Shown: positions 36,001 through 60,000 of the stretch, one piece after another
How the letters are laid out: each line of letters begins with the position of its first letter
Numbering within the stretch: the stretch's first letter is position 1
Origin: Bacillota bacterium
Lineage (GTDB): Bacteria; Bacillota_I; Bacilli_A; RF39; UBA660
Length of the DNA stretch: 64,000 nt
Reading direction: 5' to 3'
NCBI GenBank assembly: GCA_021771185.1
Contig: JAETPN010000004.1
Location: 5,903-69,902, forward strand
Program-made: the position numbers

Positions 36001-39000
36001 AAAATCGAAATCATATGTATGGCCCTTATCCTAATGTAACGGCCGCACGAAATGTGGTGAACCTGTTAAATCGTATGTATCCATTAAGAAAATGTAATAC
36101 ATATCAAGATCGACCATGCTTATATTATCATATTGGTCAGTGTTTAGGATATTGCAATCATATAGTTGAAGCTTCAAAAATTGATCAGATGAAGCAAGAC
36201 ATTATTAAATTTTTAAAGGGTGATCATACCTTAATTACAAAAAAAATCGAAGAAGAAATGTATATAGAAAGTGAAAAATATCATTTTGAGAAAGCCAAAG
36301 AATTAAAAGAATTATTGGATTATATTAATATTACTTTAGTAAGACAAAAAGTAGAGATTCAAGATCAAATTGATCGTGATGTGTTTGGCTTTTATGAAGA
36401 TAAAGGCTATCTTTCGGTTCAAGTGTTCTTTATTCGTGGTGGTAAAATTATTGAAAGGCATGGGAAGATTGTACCATTTGTAGATGATGTTCACGAAGAA
36501 GTAACAAGATATATTGCCAAATTTTATCAAAAAAATGTTTTATTACCAAAAGAAATTTTAGTTCCAGGGGGTATTGATTCAACCTTGTTAGAAAGCTTCT
36601 TACAAGTTCATGTGCGTATTCCAGTTCGTGGGGAGAAGAAAAAGATTGTTGCGATGGCTTGTCAAAATGCGAAGGTAAGTTTAGATGAAAAATTTGAGTT
36701 AATCAAAAAAGATGAAGAAAAAACGTTAGGAGCTAACGAGAAACTAAAAGAAGTTTTACAGTTGCCTAAATTAGATCGTATTGAACTTTTTGATAATTCC
36801 AATCTTTTTGGAACGTTTAATGTATCGGGAATGGTTGTTTTTAAACATGGTCTTCCAAGTAAAAATGATTATCGTAAATTTAAAATCACGATGGATAAGA
36901 ATGATGATTATGGTACAATGAAAGAAGCTTTATATCGCCGTTATTTTAGGGTACTAAAAGATCAATTAGAACAACCCGATCTTATTATTGTCGATGGTGG
37001 AATCGGACAAATGCATGTCGCTCGTGAGGTTATTAATTCCTTAGGTCTTCAAATTCCTATTGTCGGATTAAAAAAAGATCAGCACCATGCGACCAGTGCC
37101 TTACTTGCTGGCGAACCTATTCGTGAAATTAAGGTTGATCGAAAAAGTAATCTCTTTTATTATTTAGAAAGAATGCAAGATGAAGTTCATAATTTTACGA
37201 TTAATTATCATAAACAAATTCGTTCCAAAGGCTCTTTAGAAAGTGTTTTAGATCATGTGGAGGGAATTGGTACCAAAAGGAAAAAAGAACTTCTAAAGAA
37301 ATATAAAACAATTACAAAATTAAAAACACTATCTTTAGAAGAATTAGAAGCATTATTACCGAAGTCTGTAGCCCAAAATTTATATGATTTTTTACAGGCT
37401 TATGAATCATGAGTTCATTATTGAACTCATTTTGTTTGCGAATTTAAAATTATATTTCTTGACTGTTTCTTAAAATTAAAGTATATTAAATTTTAGAGGA
37501 TGATCATATGAAAAGAAAATTCAAAAAAAGATGGAAAGGTATATCAACGAATCATAAATTAATGTTTTTGGGTGTTTTTAGTATTTTATTTTTAACTGTA
37601 GGTTATGCTTCCTTAAATCGGTTGTTTGAAATTAAAGGGACTTCAACCGTAGAGTATCAGAGTGGTGTGATGTTTACCAAGGTGGAAACGACAACTGCAT
37701 TATCGGGTTCTGTAGATTATGGTCCATTTATTACAAACCCAACAACATTTAGTGCGAATGTTAGTTTTCCAAATACAGCAAATGGGGTTTTAGTTTTTTC
37801 TGTGACTGTGCAAAATTATTCTGATGTACCAGCAACACTTCTTTCAATTGATGGTTTTGATCATTTTAATACGACAGATCCTACCTGTATTACGGCACGT
37901 ATTTCTGGACAAAAAGTGGGAGATGTTTTGGCGGCTGGAGAATCAAAAAAAATTACGATTACAGTATTAGGTGGTTCTAGTTGTTCAGCTGCTACAACAT
38001 CAAAATCCATTAATTTTCAATTCCACTATAAATTAAAAGATTCTTCTGGCGGGGATACAAGTTTAGGAAATGCGGTTGTTTATTTAACAGAAAACAAAGT
38101 AGAAGATACAGTTGAAAGTGGTGGAAGTGGACTTGTGAAAGTAGATAACAAAGGACTTATTACGACTTCTACTACGCCACGCGAATATCGTTATATAGGA
38201 CCAAATCCTGACAACTATATTTCCCTTGGTACGTCTGAAAATGATGTATATGCATATAGTTTTGAACAAAATCTTGGCAATAGTAATATGAAAGTAACAT
38301 TTAGTACTTTAGAGGAATGTAAAATGGACGCAAATTATTCCTCTGATGTTGTGAAAGATTGTTACGAAGAGAAAGTGTTAAGTGCTGGTGAAGCTTTAAA
38401 TTTTCGTATTATAGGAATCTTTGATGGAAAATTAAAGATTATTGCAAAAGACAGCATTGGTAATTTTCTTTGGAATCGACTTAATAATAATTGGGAAAGT
38501 GCTGAATTACAATATTTCCTAAATGATTTATATTTAGAAAATATAGATCAAGGACGTATTTCAGAACATGTATGGAACTTAGGGGGTAGTCGTACATATA
38601 ATGATGTTACTGCACAAATGTATTATGATAGGGAACGAAGTACTGATGTTTATTCTTCCAATGTTGTGACTTGGACTGGTAAAATAGGGTTGATGTATCC
38701 TAGTGATTATGGCTTTGCTACTAGTGGTGGCACACTAATGAATCGAAACACATGTTTATCTACGGCAATATATAGCTGGGAAAAGACGAATGCTATTAAC
38801 TGTAAGGATAATGATTGGTTGTTAGATAAATCCAATATACAGTGGACAATGACTCCAAGTGCTGCCTATAATAATTTGCTTTGTCATATCGGACGTAGTG
38901 GTTGGGTAAGCTATATTGGTGGAACTTCTAATCTTTTATATGCGATTCGTCCTACGATGTATTTAAATTCTGATGTTGAATTCTTATCAGGTACAGGTAC

Positions 39001-57000: not shown

Positions 57001-60000
57001 AGTGGTCGTGTTACGTTCTTTCCATTAAATATTATCAAAGGAAAACAAGTAGATGATACTACTCGACGTATGTTAGATCAAGAAGAAGGGTTCATTGGGG
57101 TAGCGTCTACGTTAGTCAAAAATGATCCTTTATATCAAAAGATTATTGAAAATCAATTAGGAAATGTCCTTGTGGTTGATACACTAGCCCACGCTACAAC
57201 GATTAGTCGTCGTATTGGATATCGTTATCGTATTGTTACTTTAGATGGAGAACTTTTACATGTTGGAGGTTCTCTAACGGGTGGAACTGTAAAAACAAAA
57301 AATGTCATTCGTGAAAAATATGAATTGGAAAATGCACTAAACGAGGAAAAAAATGATCTTGCGAAACAACAACAATTAGAAAATATGATGAATGATATTG
57401 ATTATCAACTAAAAGGTGTAGAAGATGAACTTTATTTAGCTAAAAAAGAACAGTTGATTAAAACTGAAGAACTTCATGTGAAAGAAGAATTACGAACAAA
57501 AACTATGGAGCAATTAGATCATACAACCAAGGAAATTGAAAGTATTGGACATATGTTGGAACATAGTTTAAGTAAGGAAGAAGAACGTATTTTAAATCGT
57601 TTTTATGAAGCAACGAACGAAAAGGAAAAAGTCCGTTTATCATTAGAACAATTACGTGGTGAAAGAACTCATGTAAGTGAAGAATTAGATGCTTATGAAT
57701 TTTCAGTTCGAAAAGAAAATAGCGAAGTCAAGGAAAAAAATAGAGAATTAAAAGAATTGGAAATTGAAGTCAATCGTGCGGATGTTAAATTAGATCATTT
57801 ATTAACTACTTTAAATGAAACCTATGGAATGACTTATGAAAAAGCTCGTATGGAAGTAGAACTTACAGAAGAAGTTTCAACAGCTCGCCTAAAGGTAAGT
57901 AATTTAAAGCGAACATTAAAAGAATTAGGAACTGTAAATTTAGGAGCCATTGAAGAATACGAACGAGTAAGTGAACGCTTTGACTTCTTAACCTCTCAAA
58001 AAGAAGATTTAATCAATGCTGAAAATACACTATTAGAAATTATTCAGGAAATGGATGAAGTGATGGCTGAAGAATTTTCAAAAACTTTTGAAACGATTCG
58101 TAATCATTTTAATGAAACGTTTCAAGAATTATTCCGTGGTGGTCATGCTGATTTAAAATTAACAGATCCTAAGAATTTACTAGAAACGGGAATTGAAATT
58201 GTAGCTTCTCCTCCTGGAAAGAAATTAACGAGTATTTCATTACTTTCAGGTGGTGAAAAAACATTTACAGCAATTAGCTTATTATTTGCTATTTTAAAAT
58301 CACGTCCAGTTCCATTCTGTATTTTAGATGAAGTCGAGGCTGCCTTAGATGAAGTCAATGTTGATAGTTTTGGTCATTATGTGAAAAATTTAAAAGATAA
58401 AACACAATTTATTTTAATTACACATAAAAAGAAAACGATGGAATATGCAGATCTTCTTTATGGAATTACCATGCAAGAATCTGGTGTATCTAAGTTAGTT
58501 AGTGTAAAATTAGAGGATATTAAAGAAGATAAAGCATAGAAAAATTATCAAAAAAGGTAAAAAATATTTTTTACCTTTTTTTGTCTACTTTTATGAATTT
58601 GTTTGTAAAAATATTGACAAATAAAATAGGGAGAAGGTATAATTATTTTAGAATAGGAGTAAGAATATGAAAACAAGACAAAAACAAAAAGTGATCATAG
58701 GAACACTGATTGCAGTCATCCTAGGAATGTGTGTAGGATATGCGGCTTTAAGTCAGATCTTAACGATTACAGGAACATCAGGAATTTCAGGAGATTTTAA
58801 CATTGAATTTACCAAAATTGAAGAAAATACAATGGTAAATGCTAAGACGATAACGAAAGATGGTATTGGTTCAACAACAGCAAACTTTACCGTAGATTTA
58901 GAAAAACCAGGAAGTAGTGCTTTATATGATTTAACCGTAGAGAATAAGGGAAGTATTGATGCTGTTCTAACTAGTATTACAGGTCTTGATGAAAGTAATC
59001 AGAATGAACCTGTAGACATTATCTATACAGTTGCTGGAATTGAAGAGGGGGATACTCTAAATTCTGGGGAACAAAAAAAGTTTCAAGTAAAGGTCGTATG
59101 GAATGTTAGTGCAACGAGTGTACCAACAACTAGTAAGAGTTTAACGTTAAAGCTAAATTATGAACAAAACGCCGGAAGTAGTATAGTAACAACACCAGAA
59201 GAATCTTTTGAAATGGATGAAGCTGGAACAGTTACAACTTATACTGGTACCGATACAGATGTTGTGATTCCAAGTACGATTCATGGAGTTCCTGTTACTA
59301 AAATTGGAGATAGTTCATTTCGAGGAAAAGGGTTAACAAGTGTTGTTATCCCAGACAGTGTAACAGAAATAGATTCAAGTGCTTTTGCCTCAAATAACTT
59401 AACTAGTGTTGAACTTCCAAAGAACTTAACAACTATAAATTATGGTATATTACAAAGTAATCAATTAACAAGCATAAAAATACCAGATGGTGTTACAACA
59501 ATTGATGGTTTTGCTTTTCAAAATAATCAATTAACCAGTGTAGTGATTCCAGATAGTGTAAAAACAATTCGTGATAATGCATTTTCTCAGAATCAATTAA
59601 CTAGTGTTACTATTGGGGCCAGTGTTGAAGAAATTAGTAGTTATGCGTTTGAGATTTCTCATTATGAAGGGATGACATCGAATCCTAATTTAACAAAGAT
59701 TATTAATAAATCAGGAAGGCCATTTAATTGGTATGAAATTACAAGACAAGGTAATTATCAATCTGCAGTAACAGGAACATTTGGACAAGTTATAGTAACT
59801 GCTGAATAAGATGGAAGAAGATTAAATACTTAATCTTCTTTTTGTATGTTCTTGCATTATATATCTATTAATGTATAAAAATTGTCTTGTCAAAAATATT
59901 TTTCTTTTGATAAAATAAGATTGAAATGAGGTTATTATGAAAAGAAAAACAAATCGTTTCTGGTTAGAGAGAAACTTAGAACGTTTTCATCGTGGGGAGG

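Follow-up and report, generated by a model that had tools for sequence, protein, structure and literature searches.

Do five genes that stand one by one among the housekeeping genes of an RF39-lineage bacterium encode the subunits of a fibre held together by donor strands? The genes lie in a stretch of 64,000 nucleotides (nt) of the Bacillota bacterium assembly GCA_021771185.1 (contig JAETPN010000004.1, positions 5,903 to 69,902 of the forward strand; GTDB lineage RF39, UBA660), here called the window, and are named by their start positions: 37508, 45214, 51317, 54531 and 58667. An earlier note, made from the sequence alone, had proposed that they form a dispersed family of TasA/camelysin-like proteins, three of them fused to leucine-rich repeats (LRRs), and at the level of the superfamily we find this idea largely right. 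We believe, with a probability of roughly 60%, that the five proteins are exported by Sec, cleaved at GYA/A (a slash within a motif marks the cleavage site) and polymerised through donor strands, 51317 being the plain subunit and the four fusions the adhesive ones.

Five genes share a signal and an N-terminal domain

The five genes, all on the + strand, had been placed correctly by the earlier note, and each encodes the common signal and the domain of about 150 amino acids (aa) that it described. A1, a profile hidden Markov model (HMM) built from 51317, the database homologues of 51317 and the N-regions of the other four, matches them with E values from 7e-36 to 2e-61 and matches no other open reading frame (ORF) of the window; a regular expression for the signal motif, run over the window, returned the same five ORFs only. 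Common to all are a basic N-region, a hydrophobic core of 15-17 residues, the motifs V-G-Y-A-(A/S)-L and L/F-x-I-x-G-T-S/A after this core, and the ~150-aa beta-sandwich domain, and the mature proteins are acidic (isoelectric point 4.4-4.8, D+E 10.6-12.7%). The genes and their parts, all on the + strand, are as follows.

51317-51916, +: stand-alone subunit gene, 199 aa (family HMM E 2.3e-61).
51317, aa 1-28, +: signal peptide, with cleavage predicted from sequence at VGYA/ALAQQ (nt 51400/51401).
51317, aa 29-46, +: predicted donor strand, ALAQQLTINGTAQVSSSW, followed by the beta-sandwich domain (sequence and AF2 model).
45214-46398, +: gene for subunit domain plus BspA-type LRRs, 394 aa (family HMM 2.9e-53); signal aa 1-26, mature start nt 45292, N-domain to about aa 168, linker GSSIVTTPEE.
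45844-46206, +: best Pfam stretch of the 45214 LRRs (LRR_5 4.6e-53), which comprise about seven units of 22 aa.
45877-46250, +: tandem array in 45214, period 66 nt, 5.7 copies (Tandem Repeats Finder), with a conserved C-terminal cap in the protein, TIVNKTG.PF.W...TGTYG (paralogue alignment).
58667-59809, +: gene for subunit domain plus BspA-type LRRs, 380 aa (family HMM 8.4e-54); mature start nt 58745, LRR_5 stretch nt 59297-59659 (1.8e-31).
54531-55388, +: gene for subunit domain plus shortened LRR region, 285 aa (family HMM 1.9e-54); mature start nt 54609, about two repeats at nt 55155-55274, C-terminal cap as in 45214 and 58667.
37508-39028, +: gene for divergent subunit domain plus DUF6273-like module (family HMM 7.2e-36); signal aa 1-34 (TVGYA/SLNRLFEIKGTS), mature start nt 37610, domain aa 35 to about 186.
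38066-39025, +: DUF6273-like module of 37508, about 320 aa (match to DUF6273-bearing proteins of relatives).

The ORF of 54531 could be extended upstream to a TTG at 54444. Since a consensus promoter (54477-54506) falls within this extension, and since an AGGAGT ribosome-binding site stands ahead of the ATG at 54531, we take this ATG to be the true start.

The domain is linked to the TasA superfamily through AbpX

The core of the domain had previously been aligned with that of Bacillus subtilis TasA, and this direct link is short. Against an alignment of 25 genuine PF12389 (TasA/CalY) proteins, in which the TasA query was 99% identical to real TasA, A1 gave an hhalign probability of 68% (E 4.7e-5) over 35 columns only, and these columns are the KPGD...N.G strand pair. 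Motifs of the KPGD..N.G type are frequent among beta-sandwich domains. When A1 was run against PDB sequences, TasA appeared only at E 0.18-0.24, and the best match was AbpX of Pyrodictium abyssi (E 7.9e-6 for the mature chain, 9sj2_C, and 2.6e-5 for 9rhp_A). In hhalign, A1 matched mature AbpX residues 5-144, taken as a single sequence, at 86% (E 5.2e-6), and five AbpX precursors at 97.0% (E 8.1e-11) over 156 columns; phmmer searches of PDB with 51317 and 37508 returned nothing meaningful. The precursor alignment sets VGYA/AL.Q.LTI on LTYA/QWSETLSL, where the slash is the AbpX cleavage site, and the residues after the aligned site are the AbpX donor strand W2-I12. The AbpX precursor has a 54-aa signal that leads to a 163-aa mature protein, as published (10.64898/2026.01.04.697558). 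AbpX, itself a subunit of the TasA superfamily, polymerises by donor-strand complementation without a chaperone, as electron cryomicroscopy shows (bioRxiv 10.64898/2026.01.04.697558). On these alignments and on the gene context of relatives, we assign the window N-domain to the TasA superfamily of donor-strand subunits; the TasA relation stands at that level.

Relatives encode a dedicated peptidase and a DUF5305 protein

With 13 closer sequences as query, a scan of species-representative genomes recovered 61 related loci, nearly all in metagenome-assembled genomes (MAGs) of uncultured gut 'Bacilli', 'Tenericutes', Acholeplasmataceae or Mollicutes; the species representatives do not include the window genome itself, and the best match among them was 54% identical and came from Ca. 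Pelethosoma, which is filed under Mycoplasmatota. Of the 61 loci, 44 encode a long peptidase (~380-400 aa) immediately 3' of family genes, as do L002-L005, and 43 contain a DUF5305 gene. The usual order is one to four small family genes, the peptidase and DUF5305, after which a further member may follow, and a larger family member often stands directly before the peptidase or directly after DUF5305. One homologous locus from the human gut (L002) consists of a family gene, a protein with the signal and CBM_2, a 391-aa S26 peptidase and DUF5305. The peptidase of the relatives scores 93 bits with TIGR02228 (cutoff 51.85), with SipW as the next-best model (63-69 bits); it has SxSMxP, HR[VI] and KGDNN motifs, and its catalytic domain is preceded by 5-10 hydrophobic segments. 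The DUF5305 proteins match Pfam at 3e-15 and have two transmembrane segments. This layout matches the published ones: AbpX loci comprise a peptidase of the TIGR02228 type with multiple transmembrane segments, DUF5305, minor subunits and tip proteins whose folds vary (10.64898/2026.01.04.697558), and Tafi loci comprise the TafD peptidase, the DUF5305 protein TafG, the TafC tip and the TafF anchor (PMC11821415, PMC12337348).

Three MAGs with several loci (BRZ_DH bin66, E03 bin178 and MGBC119771) have one locus with peptidase and DUF5305 and are orphan at the remaining ones, and in Ca. Aphodocola both captured loci are orphan. Given this pairing of one peptidase locus with orphans, a core operon of peptidase and DUF5305 is likely to lie elsewhere in the genome from which the window comes.

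The member encoded after DUF5305 is different in the four closest relatives, where it carries GY[IV]PLAYK[AT]K and is without LTINGTA (L006:4303-4839, L007:11331-11867, L008:11553-12206 and L009:9262-9879). A bulky residue at -1 together with a proline at +1 is expected to block type I cleavage. From its sequence, this variant is probably an uncleaved membrane anchor or base, like TafF of Tafi pili.

Could the resemblance to TasA and AbpX nevertheless be due to chance, the domain being a beta-sandwich of the generic CARDB/DUF11 type after an ordinary Sec signal, and the five genes having no tie to any fibre system? The shortness of the TasA match would fit such an account, as would weak matches to the Ig-like domains of HYDIN and VesB and to choice-of-anchor D, and the matches of the family profile to repeats of giant proteins of 4,000-6,000 aa. 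Given that the alignment with AbpX precursors (97%) extends over 156 columns, that the mature AbpX chain alone is matched at E 8e-6 by hmmsearch, and that linkage to a TIGR02228 peptidase and DUF5305 in 43-44 of the 61 loci is a hallmark of AbpX/Tafi loci, we consider chance resemblance very improbable.

The signal is followed by a predicted donor strand

Over 118 distinct members, the consensus of the signal region is M-[AST]-V-G-Y-A-A-L-[AS]-Q-[QT]-L-T-I-N-G-T-A-x-[IV]-x-S-x-W-D. At the predicted site, -3 is G in 78% and otherwise A, and -1 is A in 87% and otherwise S. The L-T-I-N-G-T-A stretch on the C-terminal side of the site is conserved at 66-93%, and by this measure conservation extends beyond the needs of a cleavage site alone. 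In 51317, a stretch of about 20 residues shows hydrophobic alternation, with the hydrophobic residues at even positions (L30, L34, I36, A40, V42, W46, I48 and F50), a pattern typical of a beta-strand. A Sec signal, a type I cleavage site and an amphipathic donor strand are predicted from the sequence.

The motif is also kept in proteins whose remainder consists of carbohydrate-binding module (CBM) domains only. In L002 (10528-11481), a gene 5' of the peptidase encodes the signal and donor motif followed by CBM_2/CBM49-like domains, without a pilin domain, and similar genes are found in L017, L018, L020, L022, L025, L035 and L046. Such proteins are candidates for carrying a donor strand without an acceptor domain, as a fibre cap or tip would need, and we propose them as candidate fibre caps that display carbohydrate-binding modules.

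These same proteins can be read differently. Since the motif can evidently work without a groove of its own, it might serve the peptidase and DUF5305 for recognition or sorting, and the family might consist of cleaved matrix lectins or adhesins, soluble or held non-covalently, which do not polymerise; that the residues of the AbpX calcium site are not conserved would agree with this. Yet a donor strand without a groove is just what a fibre cap is expected to look like, the ~20-residue hydrophobic alternation is that of a beta-strand, and in alignment the motif falls on the donor strand of AbpX. We give the non-polymerising alternative little credence.

Structural predictions and the question of cleavage

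AF2 (AlphaFold2) models of 51317 are beta-sandwiches with pLDDT (predicted local distance difference test) values of 83.7 and 85.4, the latter for the mature form, in which residues 1-19 are unstructured and not folded back into the protein's own groove. The monomer model of AbpX likewise has an unstructured N-terminal extension (10.64898/2026.01.04.697558). When the signal is included, residues 6-37 of 51317 are modelled as one long helix. Neither the full-length model nor that of the mature form found a PDB match at E<=1e-3 in Foldseek. Among the top matches are donor-strand subunits (CfaB, the TasA fibre 8aur at E 1.3e-2, probability 0.97 and TMq 0.44, and the 0406 thread), which is not significant evidence alone.

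The long helix bears on another reading, in which the signal is an uncleaved transmembrane anchor, the beta-sandwich a stalk for the LRR and DUF6273-like modules, and the proteins monomeric surface adhesins that form no fibre. It would suit this reading that no peptidase is encoded in the window, that structural searches returned generic Ig-like or beta-sandwich matches only, and that some relatives carry the apparently uncleavable GY[IV]P variants. Against it, the near-invariant small residues at -3 and -1 (G-Y-A) suit a type I cleavage site, the GYA site aligns with the experimentally defined site of AbpX, the dedicated peptidase adjoins family genes in 44 of the 61 related loci, and a role as stalk is a poor fit for the stand-alone, 199-aa 51317 and for tandem arrays of two to four small members. 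Given these points, we consider surface-anchored monomers unlikely.

Four of the five proteins carry C-terminal modules

The domain occurs alone in 51317 and is fused to another surface module, DUF6273-like, in 37508, in agreement with the earlier note. Of the three LRR fusions that it described, two are plain from LRR_5 (cutoff 27.7 bits), with 178.9 bits for 45214 and 109.1 for its 60% identical paralogue 58667, whereas 54531 stays below threshold at 21.7 bits. Alignment of the three paralogues indicates that 54531 has lost about five 22-aa repeats by in-frame deletion, leaving about two, and has retained the C-terminal cap, and on this alignment we regard its LRR region as homologous to those of 45214 and 58667 despite the Pfam score. 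The C-region of 37508 has no Pfam match of its own; it matches an L041 protein at 1e-10, which in turn matches DUF6273 at 3e-8, and, in the operon of L043, it matches the protein encoded 3' of DUF5305 at 4e-7.

Among the best 150 family representatives, 53 are 250-1000 aa long; LRR_5 is found in five of these, DUF6273 in five, Flg_new in three and DUF285 in two, and most of their C-regions are unannotated. An LRR-bearing member (DUF285 plus LRR_5) stands directly after DUF5305 in L047, and LRR-bearing or DUF6273-like members are so placed inside the core operons of L047, L043 and L036. Since the architectures of the window recur inside core operons, the fusions are functionally tied to the system. 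The family itself is large, with 11,584 representative 50%-identity clusters at E<=1e-3, 6,214 at 1e-10 and 1,287 at 1e-30; it has no Pfam or NCBIfam model, and no listed homologue carried a precomputed Pfam domain.

Two observations concern much larger proteins. The A1 profile matches 25-30 tandem stretches (positions ~84-160) in the giant proteins P0077, P0117, P0148 and P0192, which suggests that the domain core is related to, or reused as, the repeat unit of very large surface proteins. Within the window, a 3161-aa ORF at 2260-11745 (+) has an N-terminal transmembrane helix, matches Bact_surface_Ig-like and HYR, and ends in two copies of the DUF6273-like module of 37508 (...VRPTITLKSTVRITSGNGTSTSPYVIAY; BLASTP 5e-6 and 1e-5), without the GYAAL/LTINGTA motif. 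We regard it as a probable giant surface adhesin, with a binding module in common with the fibre-type protein 37508.

Each gene is a separate expression cassette

The window contains five orphan, monocistronic substrate genes: one plain, three LRR fusions and one DUF6273-like fusion. The neighbours are those named by the earlier note. 37508 lies between uvrC and mutL; 45214 lies between proS and a tetR-ABC-ABC run, which is followed by 51317 and then by TM2-ThiF; further on, 54531 and 58667 stand on either side of smc, the latter ahead of a ylmH-like gene. The claim that each gene has a promoter and a terminator of its own also held, and the sites, all on the + strand, are as follows.

37459-37487, +: promoter-like site of 37508, TTGACT-17-TATATT, 10/12.
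45161-45189, +: promoter-like site of 45214, TTGACT-17-TATAAT, 11/12.
51265-51293, +: promoter-like site of 51317, TTGTCA-17-TACAAT with TG, 10/12.
54477-54506, +: consensus promoter of 54531, TTGACA-18-TATAAT, 12/12.
58614-58643, +: consensus promoter of 58667, TTGACA-18-TATAAT, 12/12.
39030-39061, +: terminator-like hairpin (10 bp) and U-run 3' of 37508 (folding).
46402-46437, +: terminator-like hairpin (13 bp, GAAAGAAGAUUAA...UUAAUCUUCUUUUUC) and U-run 3' of 45214 (folding, z -3.7).
51923-51957, +: terminator-like hairpin (14 bp) and U-run 3' of 51317 (folding, z -3.0).
55393-55424, +: terminator-like hairpin (12 bp) and U-run 3' of 54531 (folding).
59814-59845, +: terminator-like hairpin (12 bp) and U-run 3' of 58667 (folding, z -4.1).

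The sigma-70-like sites lie 20-25 nt 5' of all five starts. Since such sites are at least as frequent in shuffled sequence as across the scanned regions, the evidence for these promoters is their position and quality. Every stop codon is followed, at most 10 nt away, by an AT-rich hairpin of 10-14 bp and a U-run; a scan for consensus terminators missed all five because their stems have fewer than three GC pairs. The promoters of 54531 and 58667 are identical, the terminator hairpins of 45214, 54531 and 58667 are nearly so (GAAGAAGAUUAAAUAnUUAAUCUUCUUUUU), and the three LRR genes have promoter, ribosome-binding site and terminator sequences in common, from which it appears that whole expression cassettes were duplicated to separate sites. 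In a synteny test for degraded operons, the orphan sites and the loci of relatives had no flanking genes in common.

Some other features of the neighbourhood may be recorded. The gene upstream of 54531 has a GC-containing terminator-like hairpin at about 54365-54400. Between mutL and proS lie two + strand ORFs (40900-42144, 414 aa; 42148-43590, 480 aa) that have no Pfam match at E<=1e-3 and, by jackhmmer, no relation to signal peptidase or DUF5305. The window also holds a YceG/MltG-like gene (61666-62751) and a VanZ-like gene (24471-25673), which suggest that the organism makes peptidoglycan, although its nearest relatives are classed as Mycoplasmatota or 'Tenericutes'; peptidoglycan synthesis bears on how a fibre might be anchored.

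Comparison with known systems

AbpX (Pyrodictium abyssi; PDB 9sj2, 9rhp; 10.64898/2026.01.04.697558; PMC12518558) is the closest sequence relative of the window family. The two have in common a Sec signal ending in -Y-A/, an amphipathic N-terminal strand, left without structure by the monomer model, an acidic jelly-roll (~150 aa), an adjoining multi-transmembrane TIGR02228 peptidase and DUF5305 (for the window family, in its relatives), and extra minor or tip-like paralogues. In contrast to AbpX, to which they are only ~15% identical, the window proteins have L/Q in place of W2/E4, they come from reduced-genome gut bacteria (RF39/Mycoplasmatota-like) rather than hyperthermophilic archaea, their genes are orphan cassettes away from any peptidase, and all but 51317 are extended at the C-terminus by a large binding module.

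TasA/CalY of Bacillus (PF12389, with SipW and TapA) belongs to the same superfamily through AbpX, has the KPGD...N.G strand pair in common and depends, as is proposed here for the window family, on a peptidase of the SipW type (ER/archaeal-type, Ser-His; ER, endoplasmic reticulum), the model on which the peptidases of relatives reach 63-69 bits. The cleavage contexts are of a similar type, G-T-W-A/A-F-N-D...G-T in TasA and G-Y-A/A-L-x-Q...G-T in the window proteins, the latter five residues shorter. Unlike TasA, the window proteins fail PF12389 and TIGR04088; they align with it over 35 columns only, their domain is about 100 aa smaller than TasA, and in their relatives the peptidase is a ~385-aa multi-transmembrane protein rather than a ~190-aa SipW and DUF5305 takes the place of TapA.

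The Tafi pili of haloarchaea (TafA/E pilins) also combine one or more pilins, a peptidase, DUF5305, a two-domain tip of variable kind and a jelly-roll protein anchored in the membrane, and the GY[IV]PLAYK variants after DUF5305 in L006-L009 resemble anchors of the TafF type. Unlike AbpX, Tafi pilins gave no sequence match in the PDB search with A1, and most of them are Tat substrates, whereas the window proteins are of the Sec type. The chaperone-usher tip adhesins FimH and PapG similarly place a pilin and a binding domain in one polypeptide of a donor-strand fibre, and the PapG pilin domain and CfaB are weak Foldseek matches of the 51317 model. In the window proteins, however, the pilin domain is N-terminal and a predicted donor strand, absent from FimH and PapG, is kept; the window system has no chaperone or usher, and its evolutionary origin is different. 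Finally, 45214 and 58667 have, as C-terminal repeats, clear 22-aa LRR_5 arrays like those of BspA-type proteins (HupY/LrrG-like). Known BspA-like proteins are attached otherwise, for example by a C-terminal sorting domain, LPXTG or lipid, whereas the LRRs of the window are attached to an AbpX-like pilin domain.

Three other kinds of pilus were considered and rejected. Sortase assembly was set aside on the C-termini (...VIAE, ...VISG, ...VTAE, ...YTQA and ...YILG), which are without LPXTG, and on the lack of any sortase gene in the 64-kb window. A type IV pilin would have its hydrophobic core after the conserved motif, not before it as here, and a G/FxxxE sequence, which is missing; a Foldseek match to the AAP filament vanished on removal of the N-terminal helix. 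A chaperone-usher pilus was rejected on motif and on gene content, neither chaperone nor usher being present.

A proposed model for the assembly of adhesin-bearing fibres

Based on these observations, we propose the following model. First, the five proteins would be secreted by way of a Sec-type signal ending in the near-invariant V-G-Y-A/A-L. An amphipathic segment some 18 residues long (A-L-x-Q-x-L-T-I-N/T-G-T-A/S-x-V/I...) would form the N-terminal donor strand, and the acidic jelly-roll or beta-sandwich homologous to AbpX the third element. A long-form archaeal/SipW-type peptidase (TIGR02228) and its DUF5305 partner, both encoded elsewhere in the genome, would cut after GYA, and the freed strand would then enter the acceptor groove of a neighbouring subunit to give a chaperone-free fibre. 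In this fibre 51317 would be the plain structural subunit, while 45214, 58667 and 54531, with LRRs, and 37508, with its DUF6273-like part, would be adhesive subunits of the tip or shaft that present a binding module C-terminal of the pilin domain. Each gene, with a promoter and a terminator of its own, would be a self-contained cassette between housekeeping genes, and the three LRR cassettes would stem from duplication.

Several points weigh against this model. Neither an S26 signal peptidase nor a DUF5305 protein is encoded in the 64-kb window, for which the earlier note had already reported that no sipW-like peptidase was visible. Both database models to which that note had pointed failed: with Pfam Peptidase_M73 (PF12389), 51317 alone gave a score, 13.7 bits (E 0.056), below the cutoff of 22.5, and the other four gave none, and the TIGR04088 SipW-cognate signal matched none of the five at E<=1. 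The calcium site of AbpX is also missing. Its calcium-dependent complementation uses an aromatic residue at +2 and an acidic one at +4, in a subfamily with an isoelectric point of about 4, whereas all five window proteins have L at +2, and at +4 four of them have Q and 37508 has R (family-wide, +2 is L in 58% and F in 37%, and +4 is Q in 69% and E in 10%). With W and E replaced in this way, assembly may differ from that of AbpX and may perhaps be independent of calcium. Lastly, it is difficult to place a subunit with a bulky C-terminal LRR module within a fibre.

A broader version of the model is tentative, and we regard it as possible rather than probable. RF39/Mycoplasmatota-like gut bacteria would have this family as their main pilus system, in which a single multi-transmembrane peptidase and DUF5305 protein, acting in trans, process dispersed and strongly expressed subunits from all over the genome. 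Subunits with LRR or lectin-like modules, each retaining a donor strand as well as an acceptor groove, would co-polymerise into fibres decorated with adhesins along their whole length, and duplication together with repeat loss, as in 54531, would vary what is bound.

Novelty and significance

The earlier note held that the architecture had not been characterised, and this applies to part of it. For AbpX and Tafi, publications of 2025-2026 describe loci in which a major subunit is joined by minor ones, by tips that differ in fold, by a dedicated peptidase and by DUF5305 (10.64898/2026.01.04.697558; PMC12337348). As far as our literature searches show, only the LRR and DUF6273 fusions, this bacterial clade and the dispersed arrangement are undescribed, and no paper turned up that ties RF39-like bacteria to TasA-type fibres. 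Bacterial 'AbpX homologues' have been published and may overlap with this family; a word-index search with AbpX returned only five close homologues. What is new is a large RF39-like gut clade outside the Pfam and NCBIfam models, a distinctive signal and donor motif, the union of a complete pilin module with LRR_5 or DUF6273-like modules, and the dispersal of single, strongly promoted genes away from the peptidase.

Bacteria of the RF39-like lineage are frequent in human and animal guts, uncultured and small in genome, and we know of no report on their attachment to hosts, food particles or other microbes. If the window proteins do form donor-strand fibres with LRR or lectin-like modules, this lineage would gain a concrete adhesion apparatus, and the AbpX/Tafi branch of the TasA superfamily would be extended to host-associated bacteria. 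A very large protein family, missed by domain databases, would be defined together with its cognate signal motif, and the motif VGYA/AL.Q.LTINGTA could be used directly to list the substrates of the dedicated peptidase in metagenomes.

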